Shown here one piece after another: positions 1-32,931 of a stretch of 32,931 bases of DNA. The DNA lies in the IMG/VR virus record IMGVR_UViG_2740892235_000010, positions 1 through 32,931 of that record; one strand, written 5' to 3'. The position numbers were made by a program, and so were the translations under genes. A model generated the notes under the pieces. That model made no database searches, had not been told where the DNA came from, and worked only from the letters and a program-made list of their open reading frames with translations. Origin of the DNA: a virus (Duplodnaviria > Heunggongvirae > Uroviricota > Caudoviricetes). How positions within the stretch are numbered: the first letter of the stretch is position 1; the number at the start of each line of letters is the position of its first letter.

Positions 1-996
1 TTATGGACGCATTATGGACATTCCTGACACCGGGTTAAGAGTCACAGCATCTTGTAAGAAATCCGGTGCAAAGTGTGCGTAGGTCATAGTTTGCTGAATG
101 TTAGAATGACCCAGGATGCGCTGCAATGTGATTATGTTACCTCCATTCATTATAAAATGTGTGGCAAATGTATGCCTCAAAACATGCACTGCCTGTCCGT
201 CAGGTAAATCGGGTTTTACTTCCCTGAGAGCGTTGCGCACTTTGTAGTAACTGGCATTAAAAAGCCTGCCTGAATTTTTGGTCTTGATCCGTTTAATCAG
301 GTCCTGCGAAACGGGAATTGTCCTGCGCTTTCCGTTTTTAGTTTTCATAAACGTAACCATCTGGTTAATGATGTGTTCAGCTTTCAAATTAGACACTTCA
401 CTCCAGCGTCCACCAGTAGAAAGGCAGACCAGAGTTGCATTTAACTCATCGCCATCAAGCATGGATAACAGCCGCGTAATCTCTTCACTGGACAAAAAAG
501 CCATTTCCGTAACAGCTTCACGTAATCGCTTAACCTCACGGAACGGGTTGTGAGAGTGATATTCACCGGCGTCAATTAACTTGGTGAACATCCCGCTCAT
601 TATTGCCAGATGCCGATTTACGCTGGCTGGTTTTAGACCATCGTTCATCATTACAACGCGATAATCAGTTATCGTTTTCTTTGTTAGCTGGTCCGCCCTG
701 GACACTCCCATCTCAGCAAATTTGGCGATTATTGTCGTCAAACGCCCTCGTTCAATATCTCCACGCTCATGTGATTTTCCGTGATATATCCACCATCTGC
801 CTAACAACTCTGTAAGAGTTCGGCGGTCGGCCGGCTTCTCCAGCCACTCTTTGTTGTGGAAGTTAACCAGTACATGACGTTCGAATGCCTGAGCTTCACC
901 TTTAGTTTTAAATTTCCGCCTGATACGTTTTCCATCTGCACCCTGCGGTCTGACGTCCACTTCATAACGACCATCATCGAGCTTTTTAATAGACAT
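1..996 (-). CDS. int: Tyrosine integrase (P2 Int-like), 331 aa
   Basis: Complete ORF with ATG at 994-996 and stop at 1-3. C-terminal tyrosine-recombinase box (LRHTFATHF...GHSNIQQTMTYAH). Sits at the prophage end next to the repressor gene, as in P2. Confidence 0.9.
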   Translation of the reverse strand: MSIKKLDDGRYEVDVRPQGADGKRIRRKFKTKGEAQAFERHVLVNFHNKEWLEKPADRRTLTELLGRWWIYHGKSHERGDIERGRLTTIIAKFAEMGVSRADQLTKKTITDYRVVMMNDGLKPASVNRHLAIMSGMFTKLIDAGEYHSHNPFREVKRLREAVTEMAFLSSEEITRLLSMLDGDELNATLVCLSTGGRWSEVSNLKAEHIINQMVTFMKTKNGKRRTIPVSQDLIKRIKTKNSGRLFNASYYKVRNALREVKPDLPDGQAVHVLRHTFATHFIMNGGNIITLQRILGHSNIQQTMTYAHFAPDFLQDAVTLNPVSGMSIMRP

Positions 997-1089: not shown

Positions 1090-1389
1090 TCAGCCAGTCT
1101 TTTGGTCTGAGTGGTGCAAGGTTGTTGAGTCTTGCCCAATGTGTGCGAGCGCCGGGGCTATTTGTCCGGCAGCGGGATCTGTCTCATCAAACATGAACCA
1201 GTCACGATATTTACGGAATCTTGGGTGTTTCAGAAGTCGCACTACCGCGTCATGTGAAATGGATGATTTCCCATTTTCGTACCCCACATAGGTAACGTAA
1301 TTAATACCTGTCATTTCAGCTACTTCCTTCTTCTTGAGGCGTTCAGACTCACGAATAAGTTTAAGTTTCTCACGAATCTCAATTGACAT
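1090..1389 (-). CDS. C: Immunity repressor C-like HTH protein, 99 aa
   Basis: 99-aa ORF, the same size as P2 C, with an HTH-like segment (KKEVAEMTGINYVTYVGYENG). Lies between int and a divergent cox-like gene. Confidence 0.7.
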   Translation of the reverse strand: MSIEIREKLKLIRESERLKKKEVAEMTGINYVTYVGYENGKSSISHDAVVRLLKHPRFRKYRDWFMFDETDPAAGQIAPALAHIGQDSTTLHHSDQKTG

Positions 1390-4479: not shown

Positions 4480-4751
4480 GCATTCGTATTGAAATTGGCG
4501 AACGTTATGTCGTTACCAGTGACAGCTTTCAGTTTATTCTCCACGAGAAAAAGAGAGCGGAAAGCGGTAAAAACGCCGGTCAGGAATGGCTGGCGGTGGT
4601 TGGTTATTACCCGAAATTAAGCCAGCTCGTTTCCGGCCTGATGCATCACGATATTCTGACCGGAAGCGCAAAATCTTTTGCCGATTTAAACGCGCAGGTT
4701 GAGCAACTCAGCAAGCGTTGTTCAGAGGCTTTTGGCACACATGGCCGTTAA
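4476..4751 (+). CDS. Hypothetical early protein, 91 aa
   Basis: ORF immediately upstream of and overlapping the A start. Confidence 0.55.
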   Translation: MSIRIEIGERYVVTSDSFQFILHEKKRAESGKNAGQEWLAVVGYYPKLSQLVSGLMHHDILTGSAKSFADLNAQVEQLSKRCSEAFGTHGR

Positions 4752-7104: not shown

Positions 7105-8160
7105 TTAATTTTTAAATATGGATTGTATGTATTCTATAGTGCTATCTTTAGCTCTGATGTCTTTTAAAGTGTTATTTATGAAATCTATTATTCTGTCATT
7201 ACTTAATAGTGGCGATAACGCATAACATGTTGTTGTGAATGTCATGACGTCACTAAAGCTTAGTGAAACACCTTTTGTCGCAGCGTTCTCAATCGCAAGA
7301 GACTCATCAATATCTAAGTTTGTTGCTCTTGGCCCTTTAAGGAAGATAACTTTTGAAATCCCGGATGCAGATGCTTTTGAAACGGCGTGATTAACATCTT
7401 GATAATTAAATGGTTTGTCTTTCACTTCTATAGAAAGGAAAACTATATCATCATGATATACATCTATGTCCAGTATCTCTTTTGAGGAGCTACCGGCCTG
7501 ATTGACGGGATGTGCTTTTATTATCCATCCTCTTTGTTCACCTAATAAATGTAACGAAATTGCGGCAGCAATCGCGCATGTTTCTCCATCACAAGGATGA
7601 GATATAATATTATAAATAATCTTATGGAAATCAAAATTAATTGAGTTCGGCGTTATAACTCTATTGGTTCGCTGTAGGGTAAAATATAATGCAATAACAA
7701 GCATTTCATAAGCTAAGGTTTGGGTTGTTGCTGCATGTAATATATCAATTGAAAGTTGTTGTAAAACCTTATCATTTCCTCTGCGCACAGGGTTATCAGA
7801 GGAGTGGAGCATGTAACGAGCTGGTTTATTTAGAAATGGCTCATTTGATGCGCCTAACTTACCCTCTAAAAATGGGCCTTCTACTTTGCCTACTATTACC
7901 GAATGACATAAACTTCTTGCATCATAGGCTCCGTCTACGGGGGCATTAGCTTGTAAAGCCAGAGGGTTTACTCTAGGGTCTGTTGCTTTTGCAAGTAAAC
8001 CAGTAATAAGTATATATCTGTATGTAAGGTGGGTGCCTAAAATTACATTTTGAATGGAGACCCATTGATTATTTGTTTTGTAATCAGTTAATTTTTTTGC
8101 ATCGTTGATTGCATTTATAATTACATTATAGGCTTGCTCATGATTTACTAATACTTTCAT
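7105..8160 (-). CDS. Candidate type II restriction endonuclease, 351 aa (family not assignable from memory)
   Basis: ATG at 8158-8160. Its start is overlapped by 23 nt by the upstream HTH controller gene. Divergent from a C5-MTase. Possible PD-(D/E)xK-like segment DIDVYHDDIVFLSIEVK. AT-rich. Confidence 0.5.
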   Translation of the reverse strand: MKVLVNHEQAYNVIINAINDAKKLTDYKTNNQWVSIQNVILGTHLTYRYILITGLLAKATDPRVNPLALQANAPVDGAYDARSLCHSVIVGKVEGPFLEGKLGASNEPFLNKPARYMLHSSDNPVRRGNDKVLQQLSIDILHAATTQTLAYEMLVIALYFTLQRTNRVITPNSINFDFHKIIYNIISHPCDGETCAIAAAISLHLLGEQRGWIIKAHPVNQAGSSSKEILDIDVYHDDIVFLSIEVKDKPFNYQDVNHAVSKASASGISKVIFLKGPRATNLDIDESLAIENAATKGVSLSFSDVMTFTTTCYALSPLLSNDRIIDFINNTLKDIRAKDSTIEYIQSIFKN

Positions 8161-8407
8161 AGGTGTCCTTTAGTAAGATATCCATTGGTAGACCTAATCG
8201 GCTTGCAACCACCTCTAATAATTCAAATAGTTCTAAAGCATCTAATCGCCTTTCAAAGCTTTCGATTTTAGATATATCTGATTGTGATAATCCTAGAAAA
8301 ATGGCCAATTCTGACTGCGAAAGAGAAGCTTCTTTGCGTAGTTTGGTGAGAAGCTGGACTAGGCACCTGTATCTATGATCATGTATAGTTGGTTGTCGTT
8401 TTGCCAT
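8138..8407 (-). CDS. Controller (C-protein)-like XRE-family HTH regulator, about 89 aa
   Basis: HTH segment LSQSELAIFLGLSQSDISKIE. Immediately upstream of and overlapping the 351-aa gene. Start taken at ATG 8405-8407; an alternative ATG at 8450-8452 would overlap the MTase start. Confidence 0.6.
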   Translation of the reverse strand: MAKRQPTIHDHRYRCLVQLLTKLRKEASLSQSELAIFLGLSQSDISKIESFERRLDALELFELLEVVASRLGLPMDILLKDTYESISKS

Positions 8408-8490
8408 GTGGTTTAGAAGGTGATTGATTGTGTGTCGATCCTTACCTATCATTGGTTTTATTCCAAAATCGAATAATTGGTGCTAAAGAA
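8408..8490. promoter_or_regulatory. Divergent promoter/operator region of the R-M-like module (candidate C-box location)
   Basis: Short region between the divergent controller and MTase genes. Operator position inferred from C-protein systems; no convincing palindrome assigned. Confidence 0.3.
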
Positions 8491-9582
8491 GTGAACAAAA
8501 TTTCAGCGGTGAGCTTATTTACTGGGGCAGGAGGGATGGATGTCGGTTTCTCTAATGCCGGGTTCCGAACAGTTTGGGCCAATGATATAGATAAGGATGC
8601 ATGTGATACATTTAAGCTTAATCATGAATCACCTGTTTTTTGTGGTGATATTGATGAGATGCTAAGTGAATTGTCTGGGCTGAAAAATATAGGTTGTGTT
8701 TTTGGTGGGCCTCCATGCCAAGGATTTTCTGTGGCAGGGAAAATGGACGCTCATGATCCACGTAGTAAGCTGGTTATGTCATTCATGCGGGCGGTGGATA
8801 TAATTCAACCAGAATGCTTTGTTATGGAGAATGTTAAGGCTTTAGCACAGTTGTCCAAATTTGAACCAGTTAGGTGTGAACTGTTTAAGATGGCTGAAAA
8901 GTCAGGCTATCGTTCAGCCTTGCTGGTGCTGAATTCTAAAGATTTTGGCGTTCCTCAGAATAGGGAACGTATGTTTTTTATAGGGTTTCGTTCCGAAAAT
9001 GATGTGAAACGAGTTGAGGCGGCGATAAAAAAATACCAATATCTTTCGCCAACAGTTGGTGAGATTATTCGGCCTTTAGGGCGAGCGGGTAATCCAAACA
9101 ATTCAAGAGTCTGTAATGCAAGGATTACAAATGCTGCTAAGCCAGTATTACGGAAGTCACCTTACGCGGGAATGATGTTTAACGGGCAGGGAAGACCAAT
9201 TAACCCGAATGGGTATGCTTCAACTATAGCTGCTTCTATGGGGGGGAATAGGACACCAATTATTGATGAAGAACACCTTTATGATGGCTCAACAAGTTAT
9301 GTTGAGACTTATCATAATCATCTAATGAATGGTGGTGAGCCAAAAGATATGCACGATGTACCTAGTCGTTTACGTCGACTAACGATAGATGAGGCTCTTT
9401 TGATTCAAACATTCCCGAGTAATTATGTCTTTGTGGGGAAAAATTCGTCAATTTGGCGTCAGATAGGGAATGCTGTGCCTTGTAAATTGGCGCAGGCTGT
9501 TGCTGCAGGGGTTTTGGATGTCCTTACTGGTAAAACTATTAATGTTCAAAAGAGTCAAACAGAGTTGAGTTTGAATTCGTAA
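8428..9582 (+). CDS. DNA (cytosine-5)-methyltransferase
   Basis: Motif I FTGAGGMDVGF, motif IV GGPPCQGFS, motif VI FVMENV, motif VIII QNRERMFFIGF, motif X RQIGNAVP. Start is TTG at 8428 preceded by AGGTGA; alternative GTG at 8491. Confidence 0.9.
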   Translation: MCVDPYLSLVLFQNRIIGAKEVNKISAVSLFTGAGGMDVGFSNAGFRTVWANDIDKDACDTFKLNHESPVFCGDIDEMLSELSGLKNIGCVFGGPPCQGFSVAGKMDAHDPRSKLVMSFMRAVDIIQPECFVMENVKALAQLSKFEPVRCELFKMAEKSGYRSALLVLNSKDFGVPQNRERMFFIGFRSENDVKRVEAAIKKYQYLSPTVGEIIRPLGRAGNPNNSRVCNARITNAAKPVLRKSPYAGMMFNGQGRPINPNGYASTIAASMGGNRTPIIDEEHLYDGSTSYVETYHNHLMNGGEPKDMHDVPSRLRRLTIDEALLIQTFPSNYVFVGKNSSIWRQIGNAVPCKLAQAVAAGVLDVLTGKTINVQKSQTELSLNS

Positions 9583-9926: not shown

Positions 9927-10961
9927 TCAGCCGTTGTCAGTGTCCAGTGAGTAGTTTTTAAAGCGGATGACCTCCTGACCGAGCCAGCCGTTTATCTCGC
10001 GGATCCTGTCCTGTAACGGGATAAGCTCATTGCGGACAAAGACCTTTGCCACTTTCTCAATATCACCCAGCGACCCGACGTTCTCCGGCTTGCCGCCCAT
10101 CAACTGAAAGGGGATGCGGTGCGCGTCCAGCAGGTCAGCGGCGCTGGCTTTTTTGATATTAAAAAAATCGTCCTTCGTTGCCACTTCACTGAGCGGGATA
10201 ATTTTAATGCCGTCGGCTTTTCCCTGCGGGGCATAGAGAAACAGATTTTTAAAGTTGTTGCGGCCTTTCGACTTGACCATGTTTTCGCGAAGCATTTCGA
10301 TATCGTTGCGATCCTGCACGGCATCAGTGACGTACATGATGTATCCGGCATGTGCGCCGTTTTCGTAATACTTGCGGCGGAACAGCGTGGCTGACTCATT
10401 CAGCCAGGCAGAGTTAAGGGCGCTGAGATATTCCGGCATGCCGTACAGCTCCTGATTAATATCCGGCTCCAGCAGATGAAACACGGAGCCGGGCGCGAAA
10501 GGTGTCGGCTCGTTGAAGGACGGCACCCACCAGTAAACATCCTCCTCCACGCCACGGCGGGTATATTTTGCCGGTGAGGTTTCCAGTCTGATGACCTTAC
10601 CGGTGGTGCTGTAACGCTTTTCCAGAAACGCATTACCGAACACCAGAAAATCCAGCGCAAAGCGGCTGAAATCCTGCTGGGAAAGCCACGGATGCGGGAT
10701 AAATGTCGAGGCCAGAATATTGCGTTTGACGTAAATCGGGGAGCTGTGATGCACGGCAGCACGCAGGCTTTTTGCCAGACCGGTAAAGCTGACCGGTGGC
10801 TCATACCATCTGCCGTTACTGATGCACTCGACGTAATCCAGAATGTCACGGCGGTCGAGTACCGGCACCGGTTCACCAAAGGTGAATGCCTCCATTTTCG
10901 GGGCGCTGGCGGTCATTTTTTTTGCCGCAGGTTGCGGTGTTTTCCCTTTTTTCTTGCTCAT
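9927..10961 (-). CDS. Q: Capsid portal protein gpQ
   Basis: 344-aa ORF, same size as P2 Q, and the sequence agrees with what I recall of P2 Q. Operon with P, divergent from O. Confidence 0.9.
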   Translation of the reverse strand: MSKKKGKTPQPAAKKMTASAPKMEAFTFGEPVPVLDRRDILDYVECISNGRWYEPPVSFTGLAKSLRAAVHHSSPIYVKRNILASTFIPHPWLSQQDFSRFALDFLVFGNAFLEKRYSTTGKVIRLETSPAKYTRRGVEEDVYWWVPSFNEPTPFAPGSVFHLLEPDINQELYGMPEYLSALNSAWLNESATLFRRKYYENGAHAGYIMYVTDAVQDRNDIEMLRENMVKSKGRNNFKNLFLYAPQGKADGIKIIPLSEVATKDDFFNIKKASAADLLDAHRIPFQLMGGKPENVGSLGDIEKVAKVFVRNELIPLQDRIREINGWLGQEVIRFKNYSLDTDNG

Positions 10962-21066: not shown

Positions 21067-21670
21067 TTCGCGACTGCTGCCGACCGGCTCATCACCGCTT
21101 GAAGTCGCCGCCGCAAAAGCCTGTGCGGAAATTGAAAAAACGCCGGTCAGTATTCGTGAGCTGTGGAACCCGGATACCTGTCCGGCAAATCTGCTGCCGT
21201 GGCTGGCGTGGTCATTTTCGGTTGACCGCTGGGATGATAAATGGCCGGAAGCGACAAAACGCGCTGTTATCCGCGATGCGTATTTCATTCACTGCCATAA
21301 GGGCACTATAGGCGCAATCCGGCGTGTGGTGGAGCCGCTCGGCTATCTGATTGAGGTGAGGGAGTGGTGGCAGCTCAACGAGGAGCCGGGGACGTTCCGC
21401 ATCGTTGTTGGCGTGCTTGAGCAGGGTATTACCGAGGAAATGTATCAGGAGCTGGAGCGCCTCGTTGCTGATGCAAAACCGGCAAGCCGCCATCTGACGG
21501 GACTGGCTATCAGCTTAAGTACAACCGGCAACATTTTTGCCGGTGCGGGATGCTATCACGGTGACGCCCTGACGGTTTATCCCTACACCCCGGAGGCCAT
21601 TATTGTCGGAGGGGATTATTTCCCGGCCTCGGCCATTCATTTAATTGATAACCTGAGAGTAAACGCATGA
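21059..21670 (+). CDS. I: Baseplate/tail protein gpI
   Basis: 203 aa. Position between J and H. Confidence 0.85.
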   Translation: MSDSRLLPTGSSPLEVAAAKACAEIEKTPVSIRELWNPDTCPANLLPWLAWSFSVDRWDDKWPEATKRAVIRDAYFIHCHKGTIGAIRRVVEPLGYLIEVREWWQLNEEPGTFRIVVGVLEQGITEEMYQELERLVADAKPASRHLTGLAISLSTTGNIFAGAGCYHGDALTVYPYTPEAIIVGGDYFPASAIHLIDNLRVNA

Positions 21671-23397
21671 CAGTGAAATACTACGCCATTCTGACTAATC
21701 AGGGCGCGGCACGGCTGGCTAACGCGACGATGCTCGGCAGTAAGCTGAATCTGACGCAAATGGCCGTTGGTGATGCGAATGGTGTCTTGCCGACACCAGA
21801 CCCGGCACAGACAAAACTGATTAACCAGAAACGCATCGCGCCGCTGAATCTTCTGAGTGTTGACCCGAACAACCAGAGCCAGATTATTGCGGAGCAAATC
21901 ATCCCTGAGAACGAGGGCGGATTCTGGATCCGTGAGATAGGTCTTTATGATGATGAAGGCGTACTCATTGCGGTGGCGAACTGTCCGGAAACGTACAAAC
22001 CACAGTTACAGGAAGGCAGTGGTCGTACCCAGACCATCCGTATGATTCTGGTCGTCTCGAATACCGAAGCCATCACGCTGAAAATCGACCCGTCAGTGGT
22101 GCTTGCGACCCGCCAGTATGTAGATCAGCAAATAGAAGTTCATGAGCAATCGCGCCGTCATCCATCTGCTTCTTTGACAGAAAAGGGATTTGTACGTCTG
22201 TATAGCGGTGTGGAAAGCAATGATGAAACAGTCGCTGCAACGCCAAAAGCAGTGAAAATAGCGATGGATAATGCCAGCGCCAGACTGGCAAAAGACCGCA
22301 ATGGTTCTGATATTCCCAATCCGGCACTGTTTGTTCAGAATCTGGGATTGAAAACGACTGTTGATAAAGCAGCATCAGCGATTCAGCCAGGAGATTATGG
22401 AATTGGTCTGGCTTATCTGAAAACCATGGGAACCAAATCGCAATTTTTTGCTTACAGTACAGCTGTCGGCTATCCAGAAGTGCCAACACATGGTGCTGGT
22501 TTCCAGGCCTGTTACAACGACAATCGGCGTGCACAAATTTATGTCGCTAATGATGGCAAGATGTACTGTCGATTCAGCATGTTATCGAAAATTGCCGATG
22601 ATGAAACACCGTGGAATCAGGTGTTCACCAGTGCACATTATCCAGAAGCATCAGTGAGTGTTAAAGGAATGGTGCAACTGGGGAACGATGTAAACAGCGT
22701 GTCAGAAAATGTTGCGGCGACATTGAAAGCGGTAAAAATTGCGATGGACAACGCCAGTGCGAGACTGGCAAAGGACCGCAATGGTGCTGATATTCCTGAC
22801 CCGACTTTGTTTATTCAGAATCTGGGACTTAAACCGACGGTTGATAAGGCTGAAAGTGCTCTGCAACAGGGAGCATACGGAATCGGTAGCAATAATAACT
22901 ACGAAATGGGTGAGGTTTCACAGTTTCTTGCATATTCAGGTAATGCAGATGAAGTGCCATCGAATGGTGCAGGTTTTCAGGCTGCGTATAACAAGAACAG
23001 ACGCGCGCAGATTTTCATCACCGGAGCAGGGGAAATGTATCACCGTTTCAGCGGCTCTGATACGGTTAAAGACAGTACAACACTATGGCGTCGGGGTGTT
23101 TGTGAAGATGAATTTTCATTTGGCAGCAATTATCACCGAATAACTGGCGGTGTGCTGAAGCAGTTTTTTAACAGTTATTTTTCCGGGGCAACTGGTGTGG
23201 TGAATAAAGAGTATCAGGTGAATTTTCCGACACCATTTGCCCGTCAGTGCTGGTACGTGATCCCCGTTTTCCGTTCGTCACACGGTGGGAGTGTTGAGGG
23301 TGTCGCCATTACAGCTATTACTGCAACTGGCTTTACCCTGAGCATCACCGGAGATAACGGTGGATGGAATATTGGGTTTATTGCGGAGGGGGTCTGA
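21667..23397 (+). CDS. H: Tail fibre protein gpH (contains an internal ~160-aa duplication)
   Basis: 576 aa. Position after I and before the tail-fibre assembly gene. Its 3' end lies inside the duplicated sequence flanking the N gap. Confidence 0.85.
   Translation: MTVKYYAILTNQGAARLANATMLGSKLNLTQMAVGDANGVLPTPDPAQTKLINQKRIAPLNLLSVDPNNQSQIIAEQIIPENEGGFWIREIGLYDDEGVLIAVANCPETYKPQLQEGSGRTQTIRMILVVSNTEAITLKIDPSVVLATRQYVDQQIEVHEQSRRHPSASLTEKGFVRLYSGVESNDETVAATPKAVKIAMDNASARLAKDRNGSDIPNPALFVQNLGLKTTVDKAASAIQPGDYGIGLAYLKTMGTKSQFFAYSTAVGYPEVPTHGAGFQACYNDNRRAQIYVANDGKMYCRFSMLSKIADDETPWNQVFTSAHYPEASVSVKGMVQLGNDVNSVSENVAATLKAVKIAMDNASARLAKDRNGADIPDPTLFIQNLGLKPTVDKAESALQQGAYGIGSNNNYEMGEVSQFLAYSGNADEVPSNGAGFQAAYNKNRRAQIFITGAGEMYHRFSGSDTVKDSTTLWRRGVCEDEFSFGSNYHRITGGVLKQFFNSYFSGATGVVNKEYQVNFPTPFARQCWYVIPVFRSSHGGSVEGVAITAITATGFTLSITGDNGGWNIGFIAEGV
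22181..23055 (+). repeat. Diverged tandem duplication (~480-bp unit) inside tail-fibre gene H
   Basis: GCGATGGATAATGCCAGCGCCAGACTGGCAAAAGACCGCAATGG at 22261 reappears as GCGATGGACAACGCCAGTGCGAGACTGGCAAAGGACCGCAATGG at 22741, exactly 480 bp later. Matching protein segments run from ...AATPKAVKIAMDNASARLAKDRNG... to ...RRAQIYV... Confidence 0.85.
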
Positions 23398-23567
23398 TGA
23401 GTTATTTTTACAGTCCANNNNNNNNNNCCACACGGTGGGAGTGTTGAGGGTGTCGCCATTACAGCTATTACTGCAACTGGCTTTACTCTGAGCATCACCG
23501 GAGATAACGGTGGATGGAATATTGGGTTTATTGCGGAGGGGGTCTGATGAGTTATTTTTACAGTCCA
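23279..23567. repeat. 139-bp direct duplication flanking a 10-N scaffold gap (23418-23427); probable assembly artefact
   Basis: 23279-23417 and 23429-23567 are identical except for one mismatch (23337 C vs 23487 T), separated by the N run. Confidence 0.9.
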
Positions 23568-23981
23568 TCAAGAAATGCATTTTATAACAGTGAACTGAAA
23601 TCTGATTATTACGATGCTCTCGATGCGTGGCCGGATGACTGTATTGAGGTAAGTGATGCAGTCTATCAGGAGTTTTATCTTGGTTATCGGGAAGGGTACA
23701 AAATGGTTGCAGGCACTGATAACCAGCCATCATGGGAAGAACGTCCACCATTGACCCATGAGGAACAGGTGGAACAGGCAGAAATGATGAAACAGATGCG
23801 CATTAATGAGGCTAACAACCTGATTAATGAAAAACAATGGCCATCAAAATTACAGCTTGGCAGGCTGAACGAAATGGAGACAACCAGATTTAATGCGATG
23901 CTGGATTATCTTGAGTTACTTGAAAATATTAATGTAAGTGATGCCCCGGATATAGTCTGGCCTTTATCACCAGAAGTCTGA
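23547..23981 (+). CDS. G: Tail fibre assembly protein gpG
   Basis: Starts MSYFYSPSRNAFYNSEL at ATG 23547, overlapping the duplicated H stop by 1 nt. Position after H. Confidence 0.8.
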   Translation: MSYFYSPSRNAFYNSELKSDYYDALDAWPDDCIEVSDAVYQEFYLGYREGYKMVAGTDNQPSWEERPPLTHEEQVEQAEMMKQMRINEANNLINEKQWPSKLQLGRLNEMETTRFNAMLDYLELLENINVSDAPDIVWPLSPEV

Positions 23982-24038: not shown

Positions 24039-24113
24039 AACCACATAACGTGCATCCTGCTCGTATCAACCAGAACATAGGCAGACCCCCTCTACTACCG
24101 GAGAGACTGCCTT

Positions 24114-25286
24114 ATGGCTCAGGATTACCACCACGGGGTGCGCGTTGTTGAAGTCAACGAAGGCACCCGATCCATTACCACGGTGAGCACCGCCATCGTG
24201 GGTATGGTCTGCACGGGCGATGATGCCGATGCAAAAATGTTTCCTCTTAACAAACCTGTGCTGATCACTGATGTGCTGACTGCCAGCGGTAAAGCGGGTG
24301 AGTCCGGCACGCTGGCCCGTTCGCTGGATGCCATCGCTGACCAGGCAAAACCCGTGACCGTTGTTGTGCGTGTGCCGCAGGGGGAAACGGAAGACGAAAC
24401 CACGACTAATATCATCGGCGCAGTGACCGCTGAAGGTAAAAAAACTGGCATGAAAGCCCTGTTATCTGCCCAGTCACAGCTCGGGGTGAAACCGCGCATT
24501 CTGGGTGTACCAGGTCACGACACCAAGGCGGTAGCTACTGAGTTGCTGAGCGTGGCGCAAAGCCTGCGTGGGTTTGCTTACCTGTCAGCGTATGGCTGCA
24601 AGACGGTGCAGGAGGCGCTCACTTACCGTGAAAACTTCAGCCAGCGAGAAGGGATGCTGATTTGGCCTGACTTTACTGGCTGGGACACGGTGTTGAATGC
24701 TGAAGCAACGGCATATGCCACCGCCCGTGCGCTTGGTCTGCGCGCCAAAATTGATGAGCAGACCGGATGGCACAAAAGCCTGTCCAACGTGGGCGTGAAC
24801 GGTGTCACCGGAATTTCTGCAGATGTGTTCTGGGATCTGCAGGGCCCGGCAACAGATGCAGGTCTGCTGAACCAGAACGACGTCACCACGCTTATCCGTA
24901 AAGACGGTTTCCGCTTCTGGGGTTCCCGCTGCCTGAGTGATGACCCGCTCTTTGCCTTCGAAAACTACACCCGCACGGCGCAGGTACTGATGGACACGAT
25001 GGCAGAAGCGCATATGTGGGCGGTGGACAAACCGCTGAACCCGTCGCTGGCCCGCGACATTATCGAAGGTATCCGCGCCAAAATGCGCAGCCTGGTCAGT
25101 CAGGGCTATCTCATTGGTGGTGATTGCTGGCTGGACGAGTCGGTGAATGACAAAGACACGCTGAAAGCCGGAAAACTCACCATCGACTATGACTACACGC
25201 CAGTGCCGCCACTTGAAAATCTGATGCTGCGTCAGCGCATCACCGATCAGTACCTGGTGAATTTTGCCAGCCAGGTCAGCGCGTAA
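24114..25286 (+). CDS. FI: Contractile tail sheath protein gpFI
   Basis: 390 aa. Sequence closely matches P2 FI as recalled (DYHHGV...[11 protein letters not shown]...). Confidence 0.95.
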
Positions 25287-25295
25287 GGGGACAAC

Positions 25296-25811
25296 ATGGC
25301 TTTACCACGCAAATTAAAACATCTGAACCTGTTTAACGACGGGAACAACTGGCAGGGGATCGTAGAGTCTCTGACGCTGCCGAAATTCACCCGCAAATAT
25401 GAGAAGTATCGCGGCGGCGGAATGCCGGGTGCAGTGGATGTGGATCTGGGGCTGGATGACGGCGCACTGGATACGGAATTTTCCATTGGTGGTACTGAAC
25501 TGCTGCTGTTTAAGCAGATGGGCAAAGCCACGGTGGATGGTATCCAGTTGCGCTTTACCGGCTCTATCCAGCGTGACGATACCGGGGAAGTGCAGGCCGT
25601 GGAGCTTGTGGTGCGTGGACGTCACAAAGAAGTGGATTCCGGCGAGTGGAAGACGGGCGAAAGCAACACCACCAAAGTGACCAGTACCAACAGCTACGCG
25701 AAGCTGACTATAAATGGTGAGGTGCTCTATGAAGTGGACCTTATCAACATGGTGGAAATTGTGGACGGTGTGGACCTGATGGAAGCGCACCGCAACGCCC
25801 TCGGCCTCTGA
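25296..25811 (+). CDS. FII: Tail tube protein gpFII
   Basis: 171 aa, as in P2 FII. Follows FI. Confidence 0.95.
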   Translation: MALPRKLKHLNLFNDGNNWQGIVESLTLPKFTRKYEKYRGGGMPGAVDVDLGLDDGALDTEFSIGGTELLLFKQMGKATVDGIQLRFTGSIQRDDTGEVQAVELVVRGRHKEVDSGEWKTGESNTTKVTSTNSYAKLTINGEVLYEVDLINMVEIVDGVDLMEAHRNALGL

Positions 25812-25865
25812 TGTATCTGAACGGCGCGGGATACCGCGCCAGAACCCAATTTACAGGACAGCAAA

Positions 25866-26168
25866 ATGAGCGATAAGCAGACTGAAAAGACTATTCAACT
25901 GGATACCCCCATCAAGCGCGGTAAAACAGAAATCACCGAAATTGTGCTGCGTAAACCGCAGTCCGGTGCGCTGCGCGGTACACGCCTGCAGGCCATTATG
26001 GATATGGATGTGAACGCGATGATGACCGTGATCCCCCGCATCTCCAGTCCGGCACTGACTGCACAGGAAATTGCAGAGATGGACCCGGCAGATCTCACTG
26101 CCATGTCGGTTGAGGTTGTCACTTTTTTGTTGAAGAAGTCGGTGCTTGCCGGTTTACCGACAGCCTGA
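25866..26168 (+). CDS. E: Tail assembly chaperone gpE
   Basis: 100-aa ORF directly upstream of the tape-measure gene, containing a T6G slippery site near its 3' end. Confidence 0.85.
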   Translation: MSDKQTEKTIQLDTPIKRGKTEITEIVLRKPQSGALRGTRLQAIMDMDVNAMMTVIPRISSPALTAQEIAEMDPADLTAMSVEVVTFLLKKSVLAGLPTA

Positions 26169-26302
26169 CGGTTGACGATCTGGTGGCTGATATCGCCACC
26201 ATCTTTCACTGGCCGCCATCCGTTACTGACGTTATGCCGCTGACCGAAGTGCTGGAATGGCGGTATAAAGCGATTCAGAGAAGCGGGGCCAACGATGAGT
26301 GA
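25866..26302 (+). CDS. E': gpE+E' extended chaperone produced by -1 programmed frameshift at T_TTT_TTG (26123-26129)
   Basis: Slippery heptamer in the E frame. The -1 frame stays open to TGA 26300-26302, overlapping the T start at 26295. Conserved arrangement in P2-like phages. Confidence 0.6.
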
Positions 26303-29300
26303 TAATAACCTGCGCCTGCAGGTCATTCTTAATGCGGTTGACAAACTCACCCGCCCATTCCGTGCTGCACAGGCCAGTTCGAAAGAGCTGGCTGGCGCAA
26401 TTCAGAATACCCGAAACAGCCTCAAAGAACTGAATAAGCAGGCTGGCAGAATTGATGAATTTCGCAAGACGCGCTCGCAACTAGCCATAACAGCCAACAA
26501 CCTGAACGCAGCCCGCGAAGAGGCGGCAAAACTCGCCACACAATTTGCTGCCACTAACAGGCCAACCGCCGCGCAGGCAAAGTTATTCAGTCAGGCCAAA
26601 ACACGAGTACAGGAACTTCAGCAGACCTATAACGGCTTGTTGGGGGCGGTCCAGAGACAACGTCAGGCACTTAAAGAATCAGGGATTGATACCAGACAAC
26701 TCAGTAGTGCCCAGCGAGAACTTAAGAAAAATGCCGAAGAAACTCGTCAGGCACTGGAGGGCCAGCAAAAAGCACTTAAACGTCTGGGTGAACAACAGGC
26801 ACGGATGAACGCTGCCAGAGAACAATACTCAAGACGGCTTGAAGTGCGCGATCGCATCGCAGGAGCCGGAGCCACCACCACGGCTGCAGGGCTGGCAATG
26901 GGCGCGCCAGTGATGGCGGCGGTAAAAAGCTATACCAGCATGGAAGATGCCATGAAAGGTGTGGCAAAGCAGGTCAATGGTCTGCGTGACGATAATGGCA
27001 ACCGCACTGCGCGTTTTTACGAAATGCAGGATGCCATCAAAGCTGCCAGTGAACAGCTGCCAATGGAAAACGGTGCTGTGGACTTCGCCGCACTGGTTGA
27101 AGGTGGTGCGCGCATGAATGTGGCAAACCCTGACGACAGCTGGGAGGACCAGAAACGTGACCTGCTGGCCTTCGCCAGTACGGCAGCAAAGGCGGCAACA
27201 GCCTTTGAGCTGCCAGCGGATGAACTGTCAGAAAGTCTGGGGAAAATCGCCCAGCTCTACAAAATACCAACCCGCAATATTGAACAGCTCGGTGATGCGC
27301 TGAACTATCTGGATGATAACGCTATGTCGAAAGGGGCAGACATCATTGATGTCATGCAACGCCTGGGCGGTGTGGCTGATCGTCTGGATTATCGTAAAGC
27401 GGCGGCGCTGGGTTCCACCTTCCTGACACTGGGTGCTGCGCCGGAGGTCGCTGCCAGTGCTGCCAACGCGATGGTGCGTGAATTGTCCATTGCCACCATG
27501 CAAAGCAAGAGTTTCTTTGAAGGAATGAATCTGCTGAAACTCAATCCTGAAGTGATTGAAAAGCAGATGACGAAGGATGCGATGGGAACTATCCAGCGCG
27601 TACTGGAGAAGGTGAACGCACTGCCGCAGGATAAGCGCCTGTCTGCCATGACCATGTTGTTTGGTAAAGAGTTTGGCGATGATGCGGCGAAACTGGCAAA
27701 CAACCTGCCGGAACTGCAGCGCCAGCTAAAACTGACAGCTGGCAATGATGCGCTCGGTTCGATGCAGAAAGAATCCGACATTAACAAGGACTCACTTTCT
27801 GCGCAGTGGTTGCTGGTCAAAACCGGAGCGCAGAACACCTTCAGCAGCCTGGGCGAAACGCTGCGCCAGCCGCTGATGGATATTCTGTACACGGTGAAAA
27901 GCATCACGGGGGCGTTGCGTCGCTGGGTGGAAGCTAACCCTGAACTGACGGGCACACTGATGAAAGTAGCAGCGGTTGTGGCTGCTGTTACTGTGGGCCT
28001 CGGCACCCTGGCTGTGGTGTTGGCTGCTGTGCTGGGACCGCTGGCAGTCATCCGTCTGGGATTCTCTGTGCTGGGTATCAAAACGTTACCTTCCGTTACG
28101 GCAGCAGTAACGCGAACCAGCAGCGCGTTGTCCTGGTTGGCTGGCGCACCACTTGCACTGCTGCGACGCGGGCTTGCTTCATCGGGCAACGCCGCAGGTT
28201 TACTTACTGCGCCGTTGTCGTCTTTGCGCCGCACGGCATCACTGACGGGAAATGTCCTGAAAACTGTAGCAGGTGCGCCGGTTGCACTTTTGCGGTCTGG
28301 ATTATCCGGTTTACGTGCTGTTGCTGTGATGTTTATGAATCCTCTGGCGGTACTGCGCGGTGGACTGGCCTCCGCAGGCACGGTGCTGCGAGTACTGGCA
28401 TCTGGTCCACTGGCGATGCTGCGCGTTGCCCTGTATGCCGTATCTGGTCTGTTAGGTGCTCTGCTCAGTCCGATAGGTCTTGTGGTTACTGCACTGGCGG
28501 GCGTGGCGCTGGTTGTCTGGAAATACTGGCAACCCATCACCGCATTTCTTGGTGGCGTGGTGGAAGGATTCAAAGCGGCGGCAGGTCCCGTCAGTGCAGC
28601 ATTCGAAGCGCTTAAGCCCGTGTTCCAGTGGATTGGCGACAAAGTACAGGCGCTGTGGGGCTGGTTTACTGATCTGCTGACGCCCGTTAAGTCGACCTCT
28701 GCCGAACTGCAGAGTGCAGCGGCAATGGGGCGGCGATTCGGGGAGGCACTGGCGGAAGGGCTGAATATGGTCATGCATCCGCTGGACTCCCTGAAATCCG
28801 GCGTTTCCTGGTTGCTGGAGAAACTCGGCATTGTCAGTAAAGAGGCTGCAAAGGCGAAACTGCCGGAAAGAGTGACGCGTCAGCAACCTGCGACGGTGAA
28901 TGCAGACGGTAAAGTGATGATGCCATCGGGGGGGGTTCCGTCATGGGGATATGGCTTTGCGGGGATGTATGACAGCGGCGGCTATATCCCGCGCGGGCAG
29001 TTTGGCATCGTCGGTGAAAACGGGCCGGAAATTGTTAACGGCCCGGCAAATGTGACCAGCCGGAGAAATACAGCTGCACTGGCTGCCGTTGTTGCCGGAA
29101 TGATGGGCGTTGCTGCCGCGCCTGCAGAGCTTCCACCGTTGCATCCTTTGGCACTTCCCGCGAAAGGCGACGAAGCGATGGTGAGTCGTGCAGCCACTGT
29201 GCCGCCCGTTCACCGGATTGAGGCACCGACGCAGATCATCATTCAGACGCAGCCAGGACAAAGTGCGCAGGATATTGCGCGGGAGGTGGCACGCCAGCTT

Positions 29301-29372
29301 GATGAACGTGAACGCAGGCTGAAGGCAAAAGCCAGGAGTAACTACAGCGATCAGGGGGGATACGACGCATGA
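26295..29372 (+). CDS. T: Tail tape-measure protein gpT
   Basis: 1025 aa. Coiled-coil N-terminus, hydrophobic repeats in the middle. Position between E/E' and U. Confidence 0.9.
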   Translation: MSDNNLRLQVILNAVDKLTRPFRAAQASSKELAGAIQNTRNSLKELNKQAGRIDEFRKTRSQLAITANNLNAAREEAAKLATQFAATNRPTAAQAKLFSQAKTRVQELQQTYNGLLGAVQRQRQALKESGIDTRQLSSAQRELKKNAEETRQALEGQQKALKRLGEQQARMNAAREQYSRRLEVRDRIAGAGATTTAAGLAMGAPVMAAVKSYTSMEDAMKGVAKQVNGLRDDNGNRTARFYEMQDAIKAASEQLPMENGAVDFAALVEGGARMNVANPDDSWEDQKRDLLAFASTAAKAATAFELPADELSESLGKIAQLYKIPTRNIEQLGDALNYLDDNAMSKGADIIDVMQRLGGVADRLDYRKAAALGSTFLTLGAAPEVAASAANAMVRELSIATMQSKSFFEGMNLLKLNPEVIEKQMTKDAMGTIQRVLEKVNALPQDKRLSAMTMLFGKEFGDDAAKLANNLPELQRQLKLTAGNDALGSMQKESDINKDSLSAQWLLVKTGAQNTFSSLGETLRQPLMDILYTVKSITGALRRWVEANPELTGTLMKVAAVVAAVTVGLGTLAVVLAAVLGPLAVIRLGFSVLGIKTLPSVTAAVTRTSSALSWLAGAPLALLRRGLASSGNAAGLLTAPLSSLRRTASLTGNVLKTVAGAPVALLRSGLSGLRAVAVMFMNPLAVLRGGLASAGTVLRVLASGPLAMLRVALYAVSGLLGALLSPIGLVVTALAGVALVVWKYWQPITAFLGGVVEGFKAAAGPVSAAFEALKPVFQWIGDKVQALWGWFTDLLTPVKSTSAELQSAAAMGRRFGEALAEGLNMVMHPLDSLKSGVSWLLEKLGIVSKEAAKAKLPERVTRQQPATVNADGKVMMPSGGVPSWGYGFAGMYDSGGYIPRGQFGIVGENGPEIVNGPANVTSRRNTAALAAVVAGMMGVAAAPAELPPLHPLALPAKGDEAMVSRAATVPPVHRIEAPTQIIIQTQPGQSAQDIAREVARQLDERERRLKAKARSNYSDQGGYDA
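28141..28440 (+). repeat. Degenerate ~60-nt (20-aa) tandem repeats inside the tape-measure gene
   Basis: About five consecutive units encoding PL(A/S)xLRxGLxSxG (APLALLRRGLASSG, APLSSLRRTASLTG, APVALLRSGLSGL, NPLAVLRGGLASAG, GPLAMLRVALYAV). Confidence 0.7.
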
Positions 29373-29854
29373 TGATGGTGCTGGGATTGTACGTGTTTAT
29401 GCTGCGCACCGTTCCGTATCAGGAACTGCAGTATCAACGCAGCTGGCGACATGCGGCAAACAGCCGGGTAAACCGTCGTCCGTCCACGCAGTTTCTGGGA
29501 CCGGACAACGACATGCTGACGCTTTCTGGTGTTCTTATGCCGGAGATAACGGGCGGCAGGCTGTCGTTGCTGGCTCTGGAGCAAATGGCAGAACAGGGAA
29601 AAGCATGGCCCCTGATTGAAGGCAGCGGCACGATTTACGGCATGTATGTGATTGAGGGACTGAATCAGACTAAAACGGAGTTTTTCCGCGATGGTATGCC
29701 GCGCCGGATTGAGTTTACCCTGTCGCTCAAACGGGTGGATGAATCCCTGTCCGATATGTTCGGTGATCTCAGTGCGCAGCTGAATAATTTGCAGGATACG
29801 GCAACGTCTGCCTTAAGCGATATCAGTAAAACGGTGGGAGGGCTGCTGTCGTGA
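29369..29854 (+). CDS. U: Tail protein gpU
   Basis: 161 aa. Position after T. Confidence 0.9.
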   Translation: MMMVLGLYVFMLRTVPYQELQYQRSWRHAANSRVNRRPSTQFLGPDNDMLTLSGVLMPEITGGRLSLLALEQMAEQGKAWPLIEGSGTIYGMYVIEGLNQTKTEFFRDGMPRRIEFTLSLKRVDESLSDMFGDLSAQLNNLQDTATSALSDISKTVGGLLS

Positions 29855-30951
29855 ATTTCAGCTCTGAACTGCTTAACAAAGGCAACAAAACTCCCGCATT
29901 CAGCATCAGTATTGAGGGGAAGGATATCACCACTGTGCTGGACAAACGCCTGATGGGGCTTACGCTGACGGATAACCGGGGCTTTGAAGCGGACCAGCTT
30001 GATCTGGAGCTGGACGACGTCGACGGAAAAATCGTGCTGCCGCGCCGTGGTGCGGTCATTACGCTGGCGCTGGGTTGGAAGGGGCAGCCGCTTTTCCCGA
30101 AAGGGGCATTCACGGTGGACGAGATTGAACACACTGGCGCACCGGACCGCCTGACTATCCGGGCGCGAAGTGCTGATTTTCGGGAAACGCTGAATACCCG
30201 CCGTGAAAAATCGTGGCATAACACCACCATCGGGGAAGTGGTGAAGGAAATAGCCGCGCGGCACAAGCTGAAGATGGCACTGGGTAAAGACCTGTCGGAT
30301 AAGCCCGTGGAGCATATAGACCAGACTAATGAGAGTGACGGCAGTTTTTTGATGCGGCTGGCGCGCCAGTACGGTGCCATTGCATCGGTGAAAAATGGCA
30401 ATCTGTTATTCATCCGGCAGGGACAGGGCAAAAGCGCCAGCGGTAAACCACTGCCGGTGATTACTATCACACGTAAGGACGGCGACAGTCACCGCTTTAC
30501 CCTGGCAGATCGCGGAGCTTACACGGGGGTAATTGCCAGCTGGTTGCATACCCGCGAACCCGCGAAGAAAGAAAGCACTACGGTGAAGCGTAAGCGCAGG
30601 ACTAAGAAGCAGAAGAAAGAGCCGGAAGCGAAGCAGGGCGATTACCTGGTGGGGACGGATGAAAACGTGCTGGTACTTAATCGCACTTATGCCAACCGGA
30701 GCAACGCTGAACGGGCAGCGAAAATGCAGTGGGAACGCCTGCAACGTGGCGTTGCGTCATTCTCGCTACAACTGGCGGAAGGGCGGGCAGATCTCTACAC
30801 GGAAATGCCTGTGAAGGTCAGTGGTTTTAAACAGCCAATAGATGATGCGGAATGGACCATTACGACTCTGACACATACCGTCAGCCCGGATAACGGTTTT
30901 ACAACCAGTATTGAACTCGAAGTGAAGATTTATGATCTTGAAATGGAATAA
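29851..30951 (+). CDS. D: Tail protein gpD
   Basis: 366 aa. Last late gene before ogr. Confidence 0.9.
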   Translation: MNFSSELLNKGNKTPAFSISIEGKDITTVLDKRLMGLTLTDNRGFEADQLDLELDDVDGKIVLPRRGAVITLALGWKGQPLFPKGAFTVDEIEHTGAPDRLTIRARSADFRETLNTRREKSWHNTTIGEVVKEIAARHKLKMALGKDLSDKPVEHIDQTNESDGSFLMRLARQYGAIASVKNGNLLFIRQGQGKSASGKPLPVITITRKDGDSHRFTLADRGAYTGVIASWLHTREPAKKESTTVKRKRRTKKQKKEPEAKQGDYLVGTDENVLVLNRTYANRSNAERAAKMQWERLQRGVASFSLQLAEGRADLYTEMPVKVSGFKQPIDDAEWTITTLTHTVSPDNGFTTSIELEVKIYDLEME

Positions 30952-31019
30952 AGTGTTCTCAATATTGATATTTTGTGTATCATTACAATGATTCTGATAG
31001 CAAAGGTAGGGATCTGGAT

Positions 31020-31238
31020 ATGATGAATTGTCCAAAGTGTGGTCATGCGGCACACACAAGGAGCAGTTTTCAAGTAACTGAAAGCACCAAAGAGCGTTAC
31101 TGCCAGTGCCAAAATATTAACTGCGGGAGCACTTTTGTTACCCATGAAACAGTGGTCCGGTTTATTGTGACACCCGCACTGATTGCTACTGCTCCTCCAC
31201 ATCCATTGCCAGGTGGTCAGGGGCATATGAATTTTTGA
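31020..31238 (+). CDS. ogr: Late gene activator Ogr (zinc-finger)
   Basis: Starts MMNCPKCGHAAHTRSS at ATG 31020. CxxC...CxxxxC zinc finger resembles P2 Ogr. Last phage gene before the attachment end. Confidence 0.85.
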   Translation: MMNCPKCGHAAHTRSSFQVTESTKERYCQCQNINCGSTFVTHETVVRFIVTPALIATAPPHPLPGGQGHMNF

Positions 31239-31245
31239 GAAAGAG

Positions 31246-31269
31246 AACCTGCTACGGCAGGTTTTTATT
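31246..31269. terminator. Hairpin terminator after ogr (possibly bidirectional)
   Basis: AACCTGC-tacg-GCAGGTT followed by TTTTATT on the plus strand. Overlaps the stop of the convergent minus-strand gene. Confidence 0.6.
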
Positions 31270-31748
31270 CATCTGGGATCTCACCCGTTTCAAGAAAATG
31301 TATAAAGCCAGGCTCATCTATGATGATTGTGCCTTTCATCCGGGCTGCCGATACTTTTGATGGGCCTGCATTGTAACCGCAACAGAGCATCTGAAGGCTT
31401 TGGGTTACAGAGGTTCTTACCGTTAATCCTTGTTCATTCGCCTTATCAACCAATCTTTCTTTATCTGCTTTCTTAAATCCGGTGAAACATACATCGAATG
31501 TATTTTTTTTTCGGACCAGACTGCTTGGTGAGATGTGAGTAGTTTTCGGGGAGGAATGACGCGCACTCCTGAATGGCTTGTTCTGGTGAATCGTACTGTT
31601 TAAGAATGCGGTCTTTTCGGAAGGTTTTTATTCGATCGGTGTTCTTACAAATGCCCTGTATATGATTTTCGCTATAACTGATGCTCTGTATAGAGTGAAC
31701 ACCGATACGACCATTTGCATTGATGTAAACAAAGTGAAGTTCTTCCAT
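31265..31748 (-). pseudogene. Small WYL-like + BRCT-like protein gene split by a frameshift at an A9 homopolymer (31503-31511)
   Basis: The N-terminal frame (31473-31748) carries a WYL-type signature (HIQGICKNTDRIKTFRKDRI). The downstream frame encodes a BRCT-like segment (FDVCFTGF...GPSKVSAARMKGTIIIDEPGF). Removing one A from the A9 run joins the two into one ORF of about 160 aa. Confidence 0.5.
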
Positions 31749-31832
31749 GTGAAACCTCTTTGCATGATTTCAAGATGGCGACAGGCAAGATGGACGCAAA
31801 AGTCTGTCGCCATTTTGCCGCCACTACCAAAG

Positions 31833-31861
31833 AAAAAGGGGCTACGCTTTCACGTAACCCC
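31833..31861 (-). terminator. Rho-independent terminator of ssrA
   Basis: On the minus strand, a GGGGTTACG-tgaaag-CGTAGCCCC hairpin followed by TTTTT, 10 nt after the tmRNA 3' CCA. Confidence 0.6.
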
Positions 31862-31871
31862 TTGATTTATT

Positions 31872-32234
31872 TGGTGGAGCTGGCGGGAGTTGAACCCGCG
31901 TCCGAAATTCCTACATCCTCGGTACTACATGCTTAGTCAGTCTTTACATTCGCTTGCCAGCTGCGGACGGACACGCCACTAACAAACTAGCCTGATTAAG
32001 TTTTAACGCTTCAACCCCAGGCAGGGCTTCCACGCGATCTCTTTTGGGTTTGACCTCTCTTGATCCCCGTCCTAAGAGCGGAGGCTAGGGAGAGAGGGCT
32101 CTAAGCAGGTTATTAAGCTGCTAAAGCGTAGTTTTCGTCGTTTGCGACTATTTTTTGCGGCTTTTTACGAGGCCAACCGCCCCTCGGCATGCACCTTGGG
32201 TTTCGCAAATCCCGTCGAATCCAGAATCAGCCCC
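31872..32234 (-). ncRNA. ssrA: tmRNA (SsrA), 363 nt
   Basis: Reverse complement reads GGGGCTGATTCTGGATTCGACGGG...GCGGGTTCAACTCCCGCCAGCTCCACCA, the E. coli tmRNA sequence as recalled, including the tag-coding region. Confidence 0.95.
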
Positions 32235-32448
32235 AATGTGTAAAGGTAAGTATACCAGATTTATGAGCGCCATGACCAGCCTCAATGGCGTTATCGTTAA
32301 AGATTTAGCACCCATGTAGCCTGATTTTTATTCGATTAAGCAATGGGATGGCAACATTTGTGTCGGATGTGATAGCCAATAAGATGTTCATTCGCGCCGC
32401 CGGAGAGGGAGGCGCGGTGAGGAACTGGTCAATAATTGGAGTGCAGGT

Positions 32449-32931
32449 TTAACGGTGGGCGTTTTTCATGATACGTGCTTTATCCACCTGCCATTCGCGT
32501 TCTTTGATATCTGAACGTTTATCGTGCTGTTTTTTACCTTTGGCGACGCCGATTTTCACTTTGCACCAGGCATTTTTCCAGTACAGGGAGAGCGCCACTA
32601 CGGTATAGCCTTCTCGATTGACGCGACCGTACAATGAGTCCAGTTCGCGTTGGTTGAGAAGTAACTTGCGGGTACGGGTAGGATCGCACACCACATGCGT
32701 GGAGGCCACGGCCATTGGCGTGATGTTAGCGCCAAACAGAAATGCCTCTCCGTCACGCAGAAGGACGTAGCTGTCGCTGATATTGGCTTTTCCTGCGCGC
32801 AGGGATTTAACCTCCCAGCCTTGCAGGGCAAGTCCCGCTTCGAACTCTTCTTCGATAAAGTATTCGTGACGGGCGCGCTTGTTAAGCGCGATGGTCGCTG
32901 AACCAGGTTTATGTGCTTTTTTCTTCGTCAT
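32449..32931 (-). CDS. smpB: SsrA-binding protein SmpB, 160 aa
   Basis: [33 protein letters not shown]... matches E. coli SmpB as recalled. Start codon is at the window edge (32929-32931). Upstream of ssrA in the same orientation. Confidence 0.95.

Follow-up and report, generated by a model that had tools for sequence, protein, structure and literature searches.

The pairing of a WYL domain with a BRCT domain is among the known WYL fusions surveyed by Makarova et al. (2014, PMC4012209), who proposed the combination as a ligand-sensing module. The WYL-domain regulators of DNA damage and defence PafBC, DriD, CapW and BrxR are transcription factors that carry a helix-turn-helix (HTH) DNA-binding domain, and the BRCT domains of LigA and RFC1 p140 are attached to ligase or clamp-loader modules. 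The RFC1 BRCT region helps bind 5′ junctions (PMC9293004), and the first BRCT domain of XRCC1 (BRCT1) binds nicked 5′-phosphorylated DNA (PMC6334254). Interrupted genes offer a second comparison: in bacteria, transcriptional slippage usually sets in at runs of nine A or T, and an Escherichia coli frameshift mutation in a run of As has been described in which transcriptional slippage restores the open reading frame (ORF) (Baranov et al. 2005, PMC1088944).

The gene described here encodes the same two-domain combination as that reported in PMC4012209, but in a Peduoviridae family, a repressor-adjacent position and with a homopolymer polymorphism that the survey does not include. Unlike PafBC, DriD, CapW and BrxR, its product has no HTH and consists of a WYL domain and a single BRCT domain, and unlike LigA and RFC1 p140 it is free of ligase or clamp-loader modules. 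As in the slippage-rescued alleles of PMC1088944 and of C. rodentium tssM (PMC4256274), an ORF that is otherwise conserved is broken by nine consecutive As, and an mRNA with one A less or two additional As would bring the frame back. Unlike in those alleles, the out-of-frame state here is rare rather than fixed.

The window, by which we mean the whole stretch of 32,931 nucleotides that was analysed, begins with the integrase gene (1-996, minus strand), contains a complete P2-like prophage and reaches the ssrA-smpB junction of the host. The features at its ssrA end are as follows.

29851-30951, plus strand: gpD, matching the annotation of a 99.9% identical locus
31021-31238, plus strand: ogr/Delta-like late activator, convergent neighbour of the gene, likewise matching the annotation of a 99.9% identical locus
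31246-31263, no strand assigned: terminator-like hairpin, common to the convergent ogr and WYL-BRCT genes
31265-31748, minus strand: the whole frameshifted WYL-BRCT gene, 160 aa when the run is A8
31283-31495, minus strand: predicted BRCT domain, corresponding to residues 85-155 of the fused protein; in the window its frame differs from that of ORF1
31473-31748, minus strand: ORF1, ATG start, 91 aa, C-terminal end ...QSGPKKKYIRCMFHRI before the stop
31503-31511, minus strand: A9 homopolymer, in the low-confidence inter-domain linker (pLDDT about 65)
31530-31748, minus strand: predicted WYL-type domain, corresponding to residues 1-73, a barrel of five strands with two helices; signature HIQGIC...TFRKDRI
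31755-31760, minus strand: Shine-Dalgarno-like AAGAGG, 6 nt upstream of the ATG, read from the sequence
31836-31863, minus strand: terminator-like hairpin and T-run directly after ssrA and upstream of the gene, conserved in other genera
31872-32234, minus strand: ssrA (tmRNA), whose 3′ end is the prophage attachment site, in the same orientation as the WYL-BRCT gene
32449-32931, minus strand: smpB, next after ssrA

The gene has a GC content of 41.7%, compared with 51.5% in the prophage, and is AT-rich cargo of a P2-like (Peduoviridae) prophage integrated at ssrA. The sequence-only reading had placed it between ogr and the ssrA junction, and this setting is as it was described, down to identifications that agree with the annotated 99.9% identical locus. 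The attachment at the ssrA 3′ end is supported by the loss of similarity to other contexts at 31885-31925. A search of the interval from the ssrA terminator to the start codon found no sigma-70-like promoter. This interval also contains a 14-nt inverted repeat (31771-31784 and 31804-31817; 13 of 14 positions complementary, 19-nt spacer) that lies 23-69 nt upstream of the ATG. We considered it as an immunity operator and rejected this, as the C/cox intergenic region has no copy of it and other genera retain just the ssrA-proximal arm (GGCGGCAAAATGGCGACAG) and not the second. It is therefore probably part of attP.

The prophage is a mosaic. Its arm from tail sheath to ogr (24113-32931) is 99.1% identical to a prophage of STEC 2012EL-2448 (NZ_CP027586.1), whereas positions 1-24112 align only in patches of about 64-68% identity. 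At 25793-25852, near the end of the major tail tube gene, the closest complete genome, NZ_CP027586.1 (loci L001 and L017), has 2 nt fewer and the gene is annotated as incomplete, and here the window looks like the intact version. The gap of ten Ns mentioned earlier as a sign of draft quality is real; it is a scaffold gap at 23418-23427, flanked by ORFs 21667-23397 and 23514-23981 in the tail-fibre/fibre-assembly region. A segment of 38.5% GC (7105-9582), with the replication gene (4699-7011) on one side and the portal gene (9927-10961) on the other, encodes a SacI-type restriction endonuclease (7105-8160, minus strand; Pfam RE_SacI, 1.9e-76) and a C5 cytosine methylase (8428-9582, plus strand; 1.3e-66), which, judged by these matches, is a restriction-modification system carried by the prophage as cargo.

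The longest homopolymer within the window is a T9 run on the plus strand at 31503-31511 (GAATGTA-T9-CGGACC; A9 on the minus strand). ORF1 takes in all of the WYL domain and the linker and then reads 10 residues out of frame up to its stop (...TKQSGPKKKYIRCMFHRI at the tail in the detailed translation). A second minus-strand frame is open from well upstream of the run and ends with a stop at 31265-31267 (translation ...VRKKNTFDVCFTGF...GEIPDE, in the fuller reading ...VRKKNTFDVCFTGFKKADKERL...ETGEIPDE); it has no usable start, as the listed TTG at 31453 falls inside the domain of the BRCT half. When the sequence and translations were rechecked, the coordinates and arithmetic of the two ORFs split by the nine-base run proved right, and the expected fusion of about 160 aa after deletion of one base was borne out, as removal of one A joins the frames into a single ORF of exactly 160 codons. 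The accompanying statement that both frames read KKK across the run holds for ORF1 but not for the downstream frame, which reads R-K-K-N. In the intact A8 form, the codons are CCG AAA AAA AAT, giving P-K-K-N.

Sequence comparison identifies the two ORFs as one frameshifted gene and not a chance ORF pattern, because the fused product matches both phrog_2561 (residues 1-159 of 160 against profile positions 2-167 of 167, E=2e-77) and a protein annotated in complete E. coli genomes. The latter, WP_000391794.1, is encoded at the same position, matches the fused translation exactly, and is annotated as one CDS under the name ‘BRCT domain-containing protein’ or ‘hypothetical protein’. Relatives that share 99.1-99.9% identity likewise carry A8 and a CDS annotated at 160 aa, and in four complete genomes the only difference from a 681-nt query is the missing A. 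Comparison of A8 and A9 at homologous loci, as the sequence-only reading had proposed, found intact genes rather than split ones: homologues are single ORFs of 157-190 aa throughout Enterobacterales and far beyond, and a profile search of 1.8 billion representatives returned 2611 proteins at E<=1e-3 and 210 clusters at E<=1e-30.

The gene is present in about 170 of 5426 complete E. coli genomes. A spread sample from complete genomes, drawn with a query of 484 nt (the gene), gave 58 full-length copies, of which 56 were 483 nt long (A8), two were 482 nt and none was 484 nt, so that the in-frame A8 form is found in about 97% of the sampled complete genomes. Among the best 40 complete-genome matches to a larger query, 39 had the A8 length and one (ET734) was A7. 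The exact 91-aa ORF1 product was indexed on 40 contigs (73 index blocks), and all ten loci retrieved have A9: three from NCBI draft genomes, six from ENA metagenome assemblies of several projects and one from a Logan run. Their gene sequences are otherwise identical, and over 3.3-4.5 kb of flanking sequence they have 0-11 SNPs relative to the window; an exact-sequence look-up finds the same protein haplotype only, and the independence of these A9 contigs is thus only partly established. Two A9 haplotypes (P0121 and P0134) and at least three A7 haplotypes (P0149 on 85 contigs, P0150 on 42 and P0151 on 10) were found, and both gain and loss of tract length are therefore present in natural populations. 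Since nearly all complete-genome copies have A8, we read A8 as the normal state and A9 as a rare derived state that is not confined to the window assembly, and the tract, by the alleles that it has produced, as a recurrent slippage hotspot.

Some of the A7 alleles may be long-read artefacts. In ET734 (NZ_CP100922.1, locus L006), a neighbouring phage tail gene is also flagged as frameshifted, making homopolymer errors in that assembly possible; the ET734 prophage adjoins an HNH endonuclease gene and another integrase rather than ssrA. Several database ‘proteins’ (P0063, P0076, P0091, P0101, P0109, P0170 and P0171) have multiple frame changes typical of noisy assemblies. A phage-collection record titled ‘plasmid p13P477T-2’ (CP019275.1, 30679-34359; locus L003) contains chromosomal ssrA and smpB, and its copy of the gene has A8 yet a different 1-nt insertion and is annotated as frameshifted, reflecting either an independent disruption of the gene or a long-read error.

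The sequence-only reading had left three origins for the split: a homopolymer sequencing error, a true pseudogene, or on/off switching by slippage. By the first, the true sequence would be A8 and the source strain would have an intact gene. In favour of this, the window is of draft quality and contains an N gap, errors classically fall in homopolymers, A8 on a haplotype identical to the window is very common (at least 1000 contigs), and the four complete genomes identical except for one base fit this explanation as well. We nevertheless consider an error quite unlikely, as A9 recurs in independent assemblies, in the ten loci from NCBI, ENA and Logan, from different projects and with slightly different flanks, and the 91-aa product is entered twice in one genome record. 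Furthermore, where the window and NZ_CP027586.1 align over 8.8 kb, nothing but the A run breaks a frame on the window side, and the G8 run in the tape-measure gene is in frame.

A similarly small probability attaches to the A run being a device, either a contingency locus that switches adaptively by replication slippage or a site of recoding by programmed transcriptional or +1 ribosomal slippage. Such a device should be conserved, and the tract is not: orthologues of six other genera (Erwinia, Klebsiella, Citrobacter, Tatumella, Plesiomonas and others) have no run at that position (with a linker of, for example, AAG CCC AGG GCT), and neither a conserved slippery tract nor a two-frame arrangement was found among the single-ORF homologues. 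The +1 (P0121, P0134) and -1 (P0149-P0151) alleles on several haplotypes would suit a switch, bacterial RNA polymerase begins to slip appreciably at nine As (PMC1088944), and an extra Lys would be tolerated in the flexible linker in which the tract lies. Against this stand the roughly 97% of sampled complete genomes that are in frame, the classical -1 shift on A AAA AAA, which would lead into the third, wrong frame, and the fact that a stimulatory element was not identified. Because the tract is not conserved, we read A9 as ordinary replication slippage; the switching proposal is not supported, and a true frameshift allele, be it a pseudogene or an attenuated gene, is the best supported of the three origins. 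The genomic comparisons make a real, non-programmed frameshift of the WYL-BRCT gene highly probable, and the explanation as a whole, in which a non-programmed A8 to A9 slippage struck the linker of a prophage WYL-BRCT cargo gene whose product would have a DNA-binding role in lysogeny, is in our judgement likely.

The assignments of both domains are supported by relatives and predicted structure. The N-terminal domain was predicted separately from the window’s own ORF1 and adopts the Sm/SH3-like five-stranded beta-barrel fold. Its ‘YL’ strand is followed by F-R-x-D-R-I, with T42, F43, R44 and D46 invariant or nearly so, and the family profile aligns HIQGIC...TFRKDRI with the PafBC WYL motif YFEAYC...NFRLDRV. 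A profile search of PDB sequences with this domain gave only a marginal match to PafBC (E=1), so fold comparison was needed to settle the WYL assignment. Pfam WYL (PF13280) does not match the window protein at E<=10; it matches four of 61 close relatives at E<=0.01, three more distant members of the family (P0190, P0209 and P0255) exceed the cut-off of 21.8 bits with 25-28.5 bits, and PADLOC models of CRISPR-associated WYL proteins give matches down to 3.7e-9. The earlier recognition of a WYL signature is thus supported by the fold and by distant relatives above the Pfam cut-off.

The BRCT comparison made earlier with LigA also finds support, at the level of the family and of structure. In an AlphaFold2 two-domain model built from 61 homologues (first row P0001, 99% identical to the fused protein), the mean pLDDT is 90.8, only the inter-domain linker (about 65) is of low confidence, and the C-terminal half has the beta-alpha-beta-beta-alpha-beta-alpha order of the BRCT fold. 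The Pfam search proposed for the fused translation, which was expected to return both domains, falls just short for BRCT (PF00533; 19.5 bits against a cut-off of 21.3) and fails for WYL. Among the relatives, 40 of 61 match Pfam BRCT at E<=0.01 (best 2e-6), and the best sequence matches of this half are the RFC1 BRCT domain and LigA C-termini. T89, G90, F91, L99 and K131 are invariant; in the model T89-G90-F91 follow strand 1 and K131 stands at the start of helix 2, aligned with the K of GQSK in the RFC1 BRCT domain. T89-G90 and K131 may correspond to the BRCT phosphate-binding pocket known from the literature on BRCA1 and RFC1.

That the intact protein is an enzyme, as the name ‘DNA ligase’ in phage 500465-1, PHL101 and phrog_2561 and the name ‘putative exonuclease’ in Cartapus would have it, is extremely unlikely, since the weak matches to LigA and DEDDh exonuclease models involve only their BRCT tails (LigA positions 549-650 of 652, 19.6 bits against a cut-off of 444; NF004719 positions 229-307 of 331, 26 bits against 389), which leaves these names unsupported, and the 160 residues are accounted for by the WYL and BRCT folds with no catalytic domain, neither the adenylation (nucleotidyl-transferase) domain and full-length score of a LigA nor the catalytic domain of a DEDDh exonuclease. 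Membership of the SspE and PDC-S48 families was also rejected, the matches being confined to BRCT or marginal; for PADLOC PDC-S48 (411 positions), only the last 70-110 or so positions, the BRCT part alone, match the window protein and its longer relatives. No enzymatic domain was found fused in the longer relatives, only extra BRCT repeats and WYL matches, and fusions thus provide no functional clue. We found no functional study of the WYL-BRCT family in the literature on BRCT proteins of prophages, P2-like phages or anti-phage systems; the one match was to an unrelated gene name, ‘Brc’.

The position of the gene in other prophages places the family more precisely. The sequence-only reading took it for a moron at the ogr-att end, which is true of the E. 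coli group, but the wider pattern is a position beside the immunity repressor and integrase module. In Enterobacterales loci (L018-L022, L025), the gene is convergent with ogr and gpD and adjoins ssrA; adjacency to gpD or ogr extends through Enterobacterales and Pasteurellaceae, and adjacency to gpD also to Wohlfahrtiimonas and Ignatzschineria. At 14 of 49 genome loci, the same-strand upstream neighbour, immediate in 11 and one gene further in three, belongs to one of two conserved groups, HTH_3 plus Peptidase_S24 (eight loci) or Phage_CI_repr plus Phage_CI_C (six loci), whose identity as CI-type repressors comes from one representative tested per group. The gap between repressor and gene is about 6-20 nt in closely spaced cases. 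Described phages show the same arrangement: in Mannheimia phage PHL101, the CI-like repressor ORF35 is followed after 3 nt by the WYL-BRCT gene ORF34; in Vibrio phage PV94, the order is repressor gp05, WYL-BRCT gp04, gp03 and int; and in a Burkholderia phage, an XRE regulator and one further gene precede the WYL-BRCT gene, which is convergent with gpD.

On the circular map of the E. coli group, C (1090-1389, minus strand), int (1-996, minus strand), attP and the WYL-BRCT gene follow one another on one strand, so that upon integration the gene ends up at the opposite extremity of the prophage, immediately downstream of ssrA and oriented like it. From this gene order, the WYL-BRCT family is assigned to the lysogeny (immunity/integration) module, a placement that argues for expression in lysogens, where the gene is probably made. 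The interval from the WYL-BRCT gene to int is filled by variable cargo in other P2-like prophages (loci L039, L040, L042 and L045; about 4500-6300 in each), namely KAP-family P-loop NTPases, DUF7380/DUF4209 and bPH-SHOCT proteins, and this interval looks like a defence-type hotspot.

How the protein might act can be outlined by analogy. Its N-terminal domain would belong to the class that senses single-stranded DNA in DriD and CapW, and its single C-terminal BRCT domain appears to be of the LigA/RFC1 type, with the residues expected of the phosphate pocket (T89-G90...K131) conserved. By comparison with RFC1 and XRCC1 BRCT1, the BRCT domain could bind a 5′-phosphate at a duplex junction or a phosphorylated partner, and the two domains together might recognise gapped, resected or single-stranded DNA with 5′-phosphate junctions. 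We infer that such a DNA signal would be linked to prophage or host through control of induction, exclusion of incoming DNA or modulation of repair. A specific role in sensing DNA structure is, on these analogies, a tentative proposal, somewhat less than an even chance. The regulatory, ligand-sensing role suggested in the sequence-only reading is tentative as well. In the A9 allele, translation would stop 10 codons after the run and yield a free-standing WYL domain, with the BRCT half left lacking a usable start; RNA polymerase slippage on the nine As could restore the frame in a minority of transcripts and give some full-length protein, and BRCT function would otherwise be lost. A more elaborate version, in which the protein is a lysogeny-module factor that senses single-stranded or gapped DNA independently of RecA/LexA and tunes induction or superinfection exclusion, with the E. 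coli A-tract as a mutational or slippage-buffered toggle, we regard as unlikely.

The WYL+BRCT architecture, the RefSeq annotation of the intact protein and the presence of the frameshift allele in public databases are known already, and the frameshift event itself is routine. What is new here is the assignment of the WYL domain by fold, the rejection of the ligase and exonuclease names, and the consistent placement next to the immunity repressor across Peduoviridae. The two ORFs should be annotated together as a single gene with a frameshift flag, and the names ‘DNA ligase’ and ‘exonuclease’ replaced by WYL-BRCT protein. The natural A8, A9 and A7 alleles would provide ready-made isogenic on/off controls. 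The gene family is more interesting than the frameshift: it is widespread and repeatedly found directly after the P2-like immunity repressor, and this spread and adjacency, together with two nucleic-acid-sensing modules free of an enzyme or HTH, make the WYL-BRCT protein a candidate prophage-encoded sensor of DNA damage or incoming DNA.
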